Source: Candidatus Kapaibacterium sp.
GTDB taxonomy: Bacteria; Bacteroidota; Ignavibacteria; Kapaibacteriales; NICIL-2
Assembly (NCBI GenBank): GCA_040398805.1
Contig: JBBATK010000003.1
Coordinates: forward strand, 124,062 to 188,061
Direction: 5' to 3'
Length of the DNA: 64,000 nucleotides
Position numbers and translations under genes: made by a program. The first letter of the stretch is position 1, and every line of letters begins with the position of its first letter. A model generated the notes under the pieces. It had not been told where the DNA came from and made no database searches. It was given only the letters and a program-made list of their open reading frames with translations. This document shows positions 14,083-23,221 of the stretch, piece by piece.

Positions 14083-14808
14083 TCAATCTGCGCTGCCTGC
14101 CGAGGCGTCCGCAGAGGTCGTGTCCGAACTCTCGCCGCCACCTTCTACTTCGCCGGCGGTCGGTGTGTCCGTGTTCGAGGTGTCCTCGAAGGCCGGTGCC
14201 GACTCCGCTGCCGGTGCGGTTTCCTCTACCTGAGGCACCGCTTCTTCCTGTACCGCCTCGTCGGTGGCTGCCAGAGGAGCAGCGATGGCTGCTACGTCAG
14301 AAACCGTATCTGTCTGCTTCGGTGCTGCTGCCTTCGGAGCCGACTTCTTTGCAGCAGGCTTGCGCTTTTTGTCCTTCAAGGACACAACGCCGTCCTGCTT
14401 TGCGGCCCAGTCGACCAACTGGATGATCGCCTCCTCGGCACCGTCGCCACGACGTTGACCAAGTTTGATGACGCGCGTATATCCACCGGGACGCTCCAAA
14501 ACGGCCGGAGCGATTTCGTCGAACAACGCTTGAAGCGCTTTCTTGTCCCTGATGACCTTGCCCACTTCACGACGGGCGTGAACATCCACGTGACCGTTGG
14601 CGAATTCGCCATTACGCTCACGGACGAAGGCGATCTTCGCGCGTGTGATCAGCTTCTCGATGTACGGACGCAGTTCCTTTGCCTTGGCAAGGGTCGTGGT
14701 GATACTCTTCGAGTCGCTGATGATGAGCGATGTAGCCATGTTGCTCATCAATGCCCGACGGTGACTCCATGTGCGACCCAACTTGCGGCCTGATACTAAG
14801 TGTCTCAT
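14083..14808 (-). CDS. rplQ: 50S ribosomal protein L17 with a long low-complexity C-terminal extension
   Basis: MRHLVSGRKLGRT..., ERPGGYTRVIK, RRGDGA; about 100 extra residues rich in K/A then A/E/T/S/D. Confidence 0.97.
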   Translation of the reverse strand: MRHLVSGRKLGRTWSHRRALMSNMATSLIISDSKSITTTLAKAKELRPYIEKLITRAKIAFVRERNGEFANGHVDVHARREVGKVIRDKKALQALFDEIAPAVLERPGGYTRVIKLGQRRGDGAEEAIIQLVDWAAKQDGVVSLKDKKRKPAAKKSAPKAAAPKQTDTVSDVAAIAAPLAATDEAVQEEAVPQVEETAPAAESAPAFEDTSNTDTPTAGEVEGGGESSDTTSADASAGSAD

Positions 14809-14852
14809 AATCCTCGTTCGACGTTATTCGTAATCAAATCTATTCCTGAACC

Positions 14853-16821: not shown

Positions 16822-16830
16822 TGAATCTCC

Positions 16831-16947
16831 TTAGCCTTGACGCTGTTTCATTCGTGGATTTTTCTTGTTGATAACGTAGACACGACCCTTGCGACGAACA
16901 ATCTTGTCGTTCGGATCACGCTTCTTCACTGATGCTTGTACTTTCAT
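16831..16947 (-). CDS. rpmJ: 50S ribosomal protein L36, zinc-free form (below the ORF-track size cutoff)
   Basis: Hand translation [38 protein letters not shown]; canonical position between infA and rpsM. Confidence 0.95.
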
Positions 16948-16973
16948 ATCACACTTCCAAGAAATTGGTTTTT

Positions 16974-21072: not shown

Positions 21073-21612
21073 TTACTTACCTGCAGACTTACCAGCCTTA
21101 CGACGGATATATTCGCCTTCGTACTGGACTCCCTTGCCCTTGTACGGCTCCGGCGGGCGTACCGAGCGGATTTTCGCCGCGACTTCGCCTACCAACTGTT
21201 TGTCATGTCCCTTGACTGCGAATTGCGTCGGCGACGAAACCGTGAATTCGATTCCGGCAGGGGGGATGATCATGACCGGATGGGAATACCCTACCGTCAT
21301 GATGAGCTTGTTGCTCTTGACTTCCACCTTGAAACCGACACCGACGACTGCCATGTTCTTCGAGAATCCTGCGGATACCCCTTCGACCATGTTCGCAATA
21401 GCCGCACGCGTCATCCCGTGGAGAGCACGGACCTTCTTGTGGTCGCTCTCACGGCTGAACGTGACCGACGTTCCGTCCTGATGACAGGCGATGCCTTCAG
21501 GAATATGGAATTGCATTTCGCCCTTCGGACCTTTCACTTTCACCAATCCGGCGTTCAAACTGAATTGGACTCCGCTGGGAATGACAAGTATTTTTTTTCC
21601 AACTCGTGACAT
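21073..21612 (-). CDS. rplF: 50S ribosomal protein L6
   Basis: [28 protein letters not shown]; start ATG 21612. Confidence 0.98.
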
Positions 21613-21667
21613 AACTGCTTCTTTAAATGTTTCAACGTAATTGTACTGACACACCGACCACCCTACC

Positions 21668-22063
21668 CTACCACAGCGTACAGAGGACCTCGCCGCCGAC
21701 GCCTTTCTGGCGTGCCTGCTTATCTGTCATCAAACCCTGCGAGGTGGAGACGATGGCGATCCCAAGGCCGTTATACACCTTCGGCAACTCGTCCGCGCCG
21801 GCATACCGACGGATACCCGGACGGCTGATGCGCTTGACTTCACGAATGGCGGGAGCACCGTTGTGGTACCGCAAACGGACGCGCAATGTTCCTTGAACAT
21901 TGTCGTTGATGCGCTCGTAATCGGCAATGAAACCTTGCTCTTTGAGGATGGATGCGATGGACTCTTTGATCTTCGAGGCCGGGGTGTCTACGGTCTTGTG
22001 CTTTGCACGCTGACCATTACGCAGACGTGTGAGGAAGTCACCAATCGTATCGGAAACTGGCAT
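21668..22063 (-). CDS. rpsH: 30S ribosomal protein S8
   Basis: [38 protein letters not shown]. Confidence 0.98.
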
Positions 22064-22238
22064 AAAAGGTAGTTCAATAGTGTGTGTTCCGTGGATTCTC
22101 CAAACACAGGACCCAGTCCTGCCTACCGGTCGTATCAGACTCCACGTGTGTCTGACGCTCCGATATAATTTGAACTCTTCTCTTTTCTAGGTTGTCGGCG
22201 TTTCGAACGCTATAGCCCTACGCACGGAGCGGAGGGCC
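22064..22238 (-). ncRNA. Candidate structured cis-regulatory leader of rpsH (putative S8-binding ribosomal leader)
   Basis: Nested stems AGTTCAA/TTGAACT, TATCGG/CCGGTA, TCAGAC/GTCTGA, CAGGAC/GTCCTG, TGTGTT/AACACA; the GUCAGA...UCUGAUAC motif matches the 16S h21 S8 site. Confidence 0.6.
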
Positions 22239-22239
22239 A

Positions 22240-22247
22240 CAAAGATA
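22240..22247 (-). promoter_or_regulatory. Bacteroidota-type -7 promoter box (TAnnTTTG) internal to the spc operon
   Basis: TATCTTTG on the minus strand in the 237-nt rpsN-rpsH gap; -33 element weak. Confidence 0.55.
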
Positions 22248-22300
22248 CGAAAACAGCTGTGAAAAACGGTGGAAAAGTTTGGGGCGTACGACGCCTTGAC

Positions 22301-22570
22301 TTACCAACTCGCTTTTCTCACTCCGGGGATCTTGCCTTCCAGGGCAAGCTCGCGGAGTTTGTTGCGGCACAGGCCGTATTTGCGGTATACCCCACGACCT
22401 CTGCCGGTCAGCACGCAACGGTTACGCAAGCGTGTAGGCATACTGTTTCGGGGAAGCTTCTGCAACGCATCGTAATCACCGGATTCTTTGAGAGCTTTAC
22501 GCTTTTCCGCGTACTTCTCTACCAGGCGTTTGCGTTTGTCATTTCTAGCGACGACTGCTGTTGTTGCCAT
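22301..22570 (-). CDS. rpsN: 30S ribosomal protein S14 (89-aa form)
   Basis: [34 protein letters not shown]. Confidence 0.98.
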
Positions 22571-22597
22571 GTGTCTTCAAAAGTTACTGTTGGTTTC

Positions 22598-23221
22598 TTA
22601 GTTCGTGCGGGTGAACGGGAATCCGAACTCGCGAAGCATAGCTCCGGCTTCTTCATCCGTATGTGCGGATGTCACGAAGGTGATATCCATACCGGCGATC
22701 TTGTTGATCTTATCGACGTCGATTTCCGGGAAAATGATCTGCTCCTTGATACCGAGCGTATAGTTGCCACGACCGTCGAAGCTCTTGTCCGAGTATCCAC
22801 GGAAGTCGCGGACACGGGGTGACGCGATGTTGATGAAACGATCGAGGAATTCATACATGCGTGCACGACGGAGCGTGACGAAGACGCCGATCGGCTGGCC
22901 CTGACGGAGCTTGAAGTTCGCCACGGACTTCTTTGCGCGGGCGACGGCCGGACGCTGACCGGAAATCAACTCGAGCTCGTTGATAGCGCTCTGAATGATT
23001 TTCTGGTCCTGTGCTGCCGCACCAGCACCGATGTTGATACAGATCTTTTCCAATACGGGGACCTGCATGACCGACTTGTATTCGAACTTCTTCATGAGAG
23101 CCGGCACGACCTGCTCCTTGTAGAACGTTGCAAGGCGGGGCTGAACGTTCTCATTGGATCCATCGTCCTGACGAGGACCTTCCGGCTTGAAATCGAGTTT
23201 CTTTACTACTTGCTTTGCCAT
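22598..23221 (-). CDS. rplE: 50S ribosomal protein L5 with an N-terminal extension
   Basis: [36 protein letters not shown]. Confidence 0.98.

Follow-up and report, generated by a model that had tools for sequence, protein, structure and literature searches.

To our knowledge, control of the spc operon by ribosomal protein S8 is a textbook case that is known only from Escherichia coli and its relatives. The S8 operator lies at the start of rplE in E. coli and other Gammaproteobacteria, according to the available portions of two publications (PMC3616713; PMC10931766), and the preliminary description of the locus studied here was right to place the characterised site there. This operator is an mRNA copy of the S8 site in helix 21 (h21) of 16S rRNA, by which S8 exerts feedback on its own operon; it overlaps the rplE start codon and reaches rpsH, the gene for S8, only by translational coupling. 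For other species, the accessible text of a 2024 review states that regulation of the spc operon is unknown and that its phylogenetic study is not advanced (PMC10931766). The S8 site has been described in terms of two base triples, 595-(596-644) and (597-643)-641, as far as the available parts of the source go (PMC4176348). The first is given as A595-(A596-U644), with G-(C-G) at this place in Thermus thermophilus, and the second as G597-C643 with U641. The same parts of that source report that A642 is invariant, that an odd count of loop nucleotides matters for the site and that a Ser-Thr-Ser tripeptide and a tyrosine of S8 provide the contacts to A642 and G597.

Two other kinds of ribosomal leader invite comparison. 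In the rpsO leader of E. coli and mycobacteria, the ribosomal protein (S15) is thought to stabilise a pseudoknot near its own start, according to the accessible sections of PMC10931766. Moreover, leaders from Bacteroidia, Flavobacteria and Chlorobi, as presented in the available portions of PMC7247131, resemble the element described below in the kind of evidence on which they were recognised (place and covariation), in their narrow lineages and, in some cases, in their imitation of rRNA. In those portions of that work (Eckert and Weinberg, 2020) none of the 20 motifs is assigned to S8 or located before rpsH; the terms ‘rpsH’ and ‘uS8’ are absent from its main text, and ‘rpsH’ and ‘rpsN’ from two of its supplementary files. 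Likewise, the main text of a report on 30 ribosomal leader candidates makes no mention of rpsH (PMC11109978). No description of an S8 leader before rpsH was found in the full-text literature searched, a body of work to which subscription journals largely do not belong.

Here, we analysed a stretch of 64,000 nt from a Candidatus Kapaibacterium genome (hereafter the window), the rpsN-rpsH spacer of which contains a real, conserved and previously uncatalogued leader RNA. The preliminary description had proposed an S8-sensing leader behind an internal promoter, and the in-silico checks made since (conservation, covariation, the bulged adenine, the absence of an Rfam match and a kept promoter box) favour that interpretation. 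We therefore consider it likely that the element is an S8 autoregulatory leader that has its own promoter and acts on rpsH translation. As in other ribosomal leaders, a conserved structured RNA is consistently located before ribosomal protein genes, the first of which, rpsH, encodes the likely ligand. No Rfam 15 family matched the window or its relatives: the whole window gave no match at gathering score, the interval 21500-22900 gave none at E values up to 10 except a chance-level snoRNA inside rplE, and the loci of 8 relatives gave none at E values up to 1. The locus offers a candidate S8 leader from outside the Proteobacteria, one that combines a near-exact copy of the rRNA site with a candidate promoter of its own and with an unusual predicted connection to the rpsH start.

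Set beside the E. coli spc operator, the element is likewise an mRNA copy of the 16S h21 site, with the same internal-loop layout and an invariant bulged adenine, but S8 feedback on the own operon, which is the case in E. coli, is here proposed. The Kapaibacterium-like element differs in being a 5′ leader right before rpsH, with its own candidate promoter and with the S8 core about 70 nt from the ATG. It copies the C596-G644/G595 version of the site, and its architecture is extended by another hairpin and probably a pseudoknot, to which one genus adds an outer stem. Furthermore, it was found in one Kapaibacterium-like family and not in Gammaproteobacteria. A whole-genome search showed no second pair of half-sites at rplE. 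As it does not overlap rplE, the element cannot be counted among these operators, although it would work in a similar way. As for the rpsO leader, both the protein and the fold are unrelated. There the E. coli S15 pseudoknot includes the initiation region, whereas here the pseudoknot is predicted and its 3′ arm lies 25-31 nt upstream.

The rpsN-rpsH spacer and its candidate promoter

The S10-spc cluster is encoded on the minus strand of the window, and the spacer between rpsN and rpsH is the sole long gap among approximately 20 in this cluster (Table 1), the others being 55 nt or less when measured from longest-ORF starts. A set of 80 spacers at the same place in other genomes has a median length of 27.5 nt; 50 of them do not exceed 50 nt and 15 are longer than 100 nt. 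The spacer is therefore unusually long, as the preliminary description had held. The rpsN gene upstream shows 69-98% identity to its relatives (tblastn), whilst rpsH is followed on the same strand by rplF, rplR, rpsE, rpmD, rplO and secY. The nearest named S8 records come from Candidatus Kapaibacterium, Bacteroidota and Chlorobiota MAGs (95-84% S8 identity). Two further minus-strand gaps of more than 100 nt are found in the alpha-operon region, after infA (16822-16973) and after rpoA (14622-14852), the former of which probably holds the short rpmJ gene.

Immediately 3′ of the rpsN stop there is a small G+C-rich hairpin that looks like a weak terminator. A terminator scan did not flag it; three genomes of the same genus (G003-G005) have a longer hairpin and a six-T run at this position.

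Table 1. Positions of the features discussed in the text (numbered from the first letter of the window, except where locus positions are given)
Feature	Position	Strand	Basis or remark
rpsN (S14, 89 aa), end of the upstream unit	22570-22301	minus	ORF listing
rpsN-rpsH spacer	22300-22064	minus	237 nt
Small G+C-rich hairpin (5 bp, 3-nt loop), four-U run 6 nt on	22295-22283	minus	read from sequence and fold
TAnnTTTG-type box, candidate -7 promoter element	22247-22240	minus	motif and conservation
Two extra small hairpins between box and core	22238-22201	minus	fold; only in subclade G000, G001, G002
P0 outer stem	22176-22170 (5′ arm) with 22077-22071 (3′ arm)	minus	minimum-energy fold, RNAalifold
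P1/P2 hairpin with S8-site mimic	22165-22124	minus	sequence, alignment, RNAalifold, 16S comparison
Bulged G595 (E. coli 16S numbering)	22158		
C596-G644	22157/22131		
G597-C643	22156/22132		
U598-A640	22155/22135		
Bulged U641	22134		
Bulged A642	22133		
Pseudoknot 5′ arm (5 nt, in the apical loop)	22146-22142	minus	complementarity, predicted
P3 hairpin (7 bp, 3-nt loop)	22122-22106	minus	single-sequence folds, alignment
Pseudoknot 3′ arm, complement of 22146-22142	22094-22090	minus	complementarity, predicted
rpsH (S8, 131 aa), first gene after the leader	22063-21668	minus	ORF listing
Actinobacterial hairpin region, about 70 nt before the rpsH ATG	locus positions 1132-1203 (L085, 632-703)		loci L073, L074, L079-L081, L083-L085, L087-L089, L091, L094, L105-L107, L109-L111

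A TAnnTTTG-type box, which we take to be the -7 element of Bacteroidetes-type promoters, is present in the spacer where it had first been noted, and it is kept in all 16 complete spacers of the family. In each of these a single TAnnTT[T/C]G box occurs, invariably on the upstream side of the hairpin described below and 7-71 nt away from it. The distance narrows to 34-41 nt in same-genus genomes outside the G000-G002 subclade, and in the three shortest variants the box ends 7 nt ahead of the match to the covariance model. The motif by itself was rejected as promoter evidence, since the window shows no enrichment (12 matches where 11.2 are expected), and only its conservation across spacers counts. 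A scan of the minus strand from 21900 to 22700 returned no sigma-70-type promoter and no terminator, including between the element and rpsH. If the box is used, the transcript would start a few nt past it, near 22234. Assembled contigs from RNA libraries of close strains (two studies), which may contain DNA, bridge rpsN, the spacer and rpsH. Therefore, either read-through or DNA in the libraries is possible.

The conserved hairpin and its likeness to 16S helix 21

The element is present as a single copy in all 17 genomes of one Kapaibacterium-like family, and rpsH is the next gene in every case. In 16 of these genomes there is exactly one match to a covariance model of the hairpin; they include G010, which had been left out of model building and in which the match falls in the rpsN-rpsH spacer. 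In the seventeenth genome (G016) the contig starts inside the hairpin loop, and the 3′ strand, the P3 hairpin and the downstream motif are all present. Under strict filters, the model gave no match in 134 genomes sampled from ten other families of the order, nor in a phylum-wide sample of 149 genomes outside the family. Spacer length ranges from 114 to 270 nt in 15 family genomes, and seven genomes from other families of the order have spacers of 20-81 nt that hold nothing similar. A metagenome scan yielded, among the matches listed, at least three loci with the element, which are near-copies of genomes already sampled and add no new pseudoknot variants.

The main hairpin (P1/P2) was recovered by sequence and by fold at the place given in the preliminary description, which had called for a comparison with related genomes. 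The hairpin is kept in these: in an alignment of 15 family genomes (14 distinct sequences), its 15 base pairs are paired in 95.7% of cells, a value that drops to 24-39% when the partners are slid by 1-3 columns. Compensatory changes are seen at 10 of the 15 pairs, which are altered on both sides, and the covariation score was reached by none of 500 shuffles. Such shuffle controls overstate significance, as the family comprises only 17 genomes that are related to one another. RNAalifold, run without a supplied structure, gives the same helices, again with one bulged nucleotide on the 5′ strand and two on the 3′ strand. We dropped thermodynamic stability as support, given that neither the whole spacer (z = -0.46) nor the core (z = -0.54) is more stable than shuffled sequence. 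With folding energy unremarkable and the promoter box not enriched, the case therefore rests on conservation and covariation.

P1/P2 is followed by a second hairpin (P3) that, together with the pseudoknot considered below, was missing from the preliminary description. P3 is predicted at a corresponding position in 12 of 12 sequences folded singly, with stem sequences that are unrelated. All seven of its pairs have changed on both sides in a model-fitted alignment, which is biased towards the fitted structure. A U-rich run comes after P3 in some genomes only. When the close strains represented by the RNA-library contigs are compared, the 113-nt core has a single substitution, which falls in the P3 loop (22114), whereas the other 124 nt of the spacer have five and, in addition, two deletions of 1 nt; this is a weak sign of constraint on the core. 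Strain variants cluster at 22215, 22220, 22225 and 22228, that is, within the segment of the two extra hairpins that is peculiar to one subclade.

The inner part of P1/P2 was compared with 16S rRNA using E. coli numbering, taken from K-12 rrsH. It had been stated that the pairs G597-C643 and U598-A640, with bulged U641 and A642, make up the core of the E. coli h21 site; this agrees both with rrsH and with the available parts of PMC4176348, and the two strands quoted at the time correspond to nt 597-602 and 636-643. Between the leader and the 16S h21 of the same organism, 8 nt of the 5′ strand and 7 nt of the 3′ strand are in common. Among them are the bulged G595 and the C596-G644 pair, which in E. 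coli are A and A-U, and the leader core is identical to this 16S at positions 595-599 and 639-644. With the base-triple layout compared at the level of sequence, the window has G-(C-G) at 595-(596-644) and G-C with U641 at 597-643, in both cases as its own 16S does. Across the whole genome of 2,520,448 bases (25 contigs), only two sites combine the 8-nt and 7-nt half-sites at a distance of up to 80 nt, one being 16S h21 and the other the rpsN-rpsH spacer. The 16S h21 core is the same in six family genomes. By this comparison, the leader imitates the 16S variant of its own lineage, with G595 on C596-G644, and not the A-U version of E. coli. The pairing scheme is shared as well; the two structures differ beyond the core. 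The rRNA helix runs into a long extension, whereas the leader is capped after 6-7 bp by a loop of 9-11 nt that bears the predicted pseudoknot arm, and 594-645 is an A-A mismatch in the window leader but U-G in 16S.

Conservation within the family falls on the same positions. Columns 596, 598, 599, 639, 640, 642 and 644 are invariant in the 15 aligned leaders. A642, the second base of the 2-nt bulge in the 3′ strand, is found in all 15 and also in G010 and in the cut G016. The U598-A640 pair that adjoins the bulge is U-A in 14 of 14 distinct sequences, the inner helix covaries, and at position 595 one unpaired purine, either G or A, precedes the invariant C-G pair throughout. Position 641 may be U, A or G across the family leaders, the relatives of the window having A; moreover, in one genus A-U replaces G-C at 597-643 as a compensated change, and 641 is G or A there. 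Of the UA bulge, the conservation of which had been named as a check, the adenine thus proved invariant and the uridine did not. On the protein side, the Ser-Thr-Ser tripeptide (106-108) and Tyr87 are invariant in 15 aligned S8 proteins of the family.

Predicted link to the rpsH start

With about 70 nt between the S8 core and the ATG, direct occlusion of the start as in E. coli is impossible. No Shine-Dalgarno-like sequence is evident ahead of the rpsH ATG in the window; relatives of the Bacteroidetes often start translation without one. Five nucleotides in the apical loop of P1/P2 are complementary to a segment between P3 and rpsH, and a pseudoknot joining loop and linker is likely to form. 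Of the 17 family genomes, 14 have the two 5-mers without any variation, and the three with the shortest spacers have neither. In all 14 genomes that have it, the 3′ arm is located 25-31 nt before the ATG, at a distance of 47-71 nt from the loop. The five pairs are invariant and show no covariation, so support for the pseudoknot comes from the joint presence or absence of its arms and from their fixed position. A sixth pair was dropped, as this pairing is possible in some genomes only. A mini-ORF seen after the pseudoknot arm in one genus was likewise discarded because its reading frame is not conserved.

The three genomes that lack both 5-mers (G007, G014 and G012; loci L016, L020 and L022) belong to one genus, and the joint absence is probably due to a single loss. 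They carry a minimal version of the element in a spacer of 114-115 nt, with an S8-like hairpin approximately 7 nt after the box and with neither P3, the loop 5-mer nor its downstream complement. The pseudoknot is therefore not essential to every variant. In these genomes the hairpin alone may be sufficient, or another mechanism may operate.

The outer stem (P0), which had been described as closing 7 nt ahead of the rpsH ATG, was found to do so, and its 3′ arm covers positions -14 to -8 of rpsH. All seven genomes in the genus keep it, that of G004 with one mismatch, and they show no compensatory change; we regard its support as moderate. P0 was rejected outside the genus, one other genus having a different 6-bp closing stem elsewhere and another having none. 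Compensatory changes in P0 counted on the model-fitted alignment are untrustworthy, the rows being forced into the model.

We propose that the 3′ half of the spacer would serve as the 5′ leader of a separate rpsH-rplF-rplR-rpsE... transcript, initiated from the TAnnTTTG-type promoter, and that the main hairpin would present a replica of the place at which S8 docks on 16S h21 in the same organism. S8 in excess of free 16S rRNA would then bind the leader hairpin as it binds h21 and would stabilise a compact fold, the hairpin loop then being paired with the 5-nt segment around 26 nt before the ATG. In the genus of the window, the outer stem would additionally mask -14 to -8. Such a fold could impede loading of the 30S subunit on an rpsH start that is without an evident Shine-Dalgarno sequence, and the genes after rpsH might follow through coupling or the common fate of the mRNA. 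We infer each of these steps, namely the start of the transcript, S8 binding, pseudoknot formation, translational repression and the effect on genes beyond rpsH, from the sequence comparisons above. If this is true, a pseudoknot that joins the sensor to the start at a fixed distance would represent a new route from S8 binding to repression.

It is conceivable, albeit unlikely, that S8 binds the hairpin and alters mRNA decay, 5′-end processing or elongation into rpsH instead of initiation. The distance of the S8 core from the ATG is in keeping with this, and so are the three short variants, in which the hairpin stands at the extreme 5′ end of the predicted transcript without a pseudoknot, an arrangement that would suit a 5′-end stability element. 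Moreover, S8 control in E. coli involves mRNA destabilisation, according to the accessible text of PMC10931766. However, no terminator-like site comes after the element on the minus strand, the U-rich run behind P3 is confined to some genomes, and both the constant 25-31 nt between pseudoknot arm and ATG and the position of the outer stem implicate the start site.

We consider it quite improbable that the structured leader responds to a ligand other than S8 (L6, L18, S5, another factor or a metabolite) and resembles h21 by accident. Features that h21 lacks, namely P3 and the 5-mers in the loop and downstream of it, are conserved, and S8 binding is assigned to the leader on sequence likeness. 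Yet the invariant positions are precisely S8 determinants (A642, U598-A640, the bulged purine on 596-644 and the asymmetric loop of 1 + 2 nt), the core is identical to the 16S site of the lineage in a combination that is unique in the genome, and the S8 gene is situated directly downstream. Finally, we give hardly any credence to an independent small RNA gene or an rRNA-like remnant that merely happens to be located in the spacer: a candidate promoter and a compact fold would be in keeping with this, but no terminator precedes rpsH, the spacing to the ATG is fixed and the element is always a single copy on the rpsH strand directly upstream of that gene, and the likeness to 16S is confined to the 8 + 7 nt of the S8 site.

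S8-site-like hairpins before rpsH in other lineages

Long rpsN-rpsH spacers are also present in Actinobacteria (72-263 nt; Propionibacteriaceae-like genomes and Pseudonocardia), where they end in a conserved hairpin that resembles the S8 site. The loop of this hairpin has the same layout as in the Kapaibacterium-like leader, comprising one bulged A, two G-C pairs and a third pair (U-A or C-G), together with a bulge of 2 nt whose last base is A. Across 19 aligned loci (Table 1), its 12 pairs are 96.5% paired and seven of them are altered on both sides. The hairpin ends 15-19 nt before the ATG in most of the loci (up to 23 nt; three of the 19 were unscored), just ahead of the Shine-Dalgarno region. 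Rfam 15 gave no match in 10 actinobacterial loci, which formed part of a 15-locus scan.

These hairpins bear on the suggestion, made in the preliminary description, that the Kapaibacterium-like leader evolved independently. This is plausible in that ten other families of the order do not show the element and its outer parts are family-specific. However, with S8-like hairpins before rpsH in Actinobacteria, the theme seems recurrent and not unique, the outer parts being different in each element. Together, the Kapaibacterium-like and actinobacterial hairpins suggest widespread S8 feedback that is built differently in each lineage. One may speculate, although we would lean slightly against it, that h21 mimics directly before rpsH are the common form of S8 feedback in bacteria, either repeatedly invented or very old, and that the rplE site of E. 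coli is the exception. The immediate reach of the present element is limited to one family of 17 genomes, with no cultured member among them. Nonetheless, elements of this kind should be useful for studying how RNA-protein recognition is re-invented.

Searches with a loose descriptor of the S8 site have a high background, matching 182 of 2040 shuffled spacers (~9%). Therefore, only matches with long flanking helices are meaningful. The descriptor misses the hairpin of the window itself, owing to the A-A mismatch at 594-645. It also misses hairpins in two loci from Saprospiraceae MAGs (L055 and L059), for which there is no Rfam match either. In these, the spacers measure 139 and 88 nt, respectively, and a hairpin forms over the last ~70 nt. 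Its inner part combines two G-C pairs and U-A pairs with an A-A bulge of 2 nt and, by eye, looks similar to the S8 site.

A further observation concerns rRNA itself. One 16S copy on an E. coli chromosome (L214; NZ_CP061914.1, 1295455-1295678) has an h21 region that is clearly unlike that of K-12 rrsH. Only 5 of 5433 records match the Kapaibacterium-like query at 80-90% identity, this record being one of them. It could be a foreign or misassembled rRNA copy.
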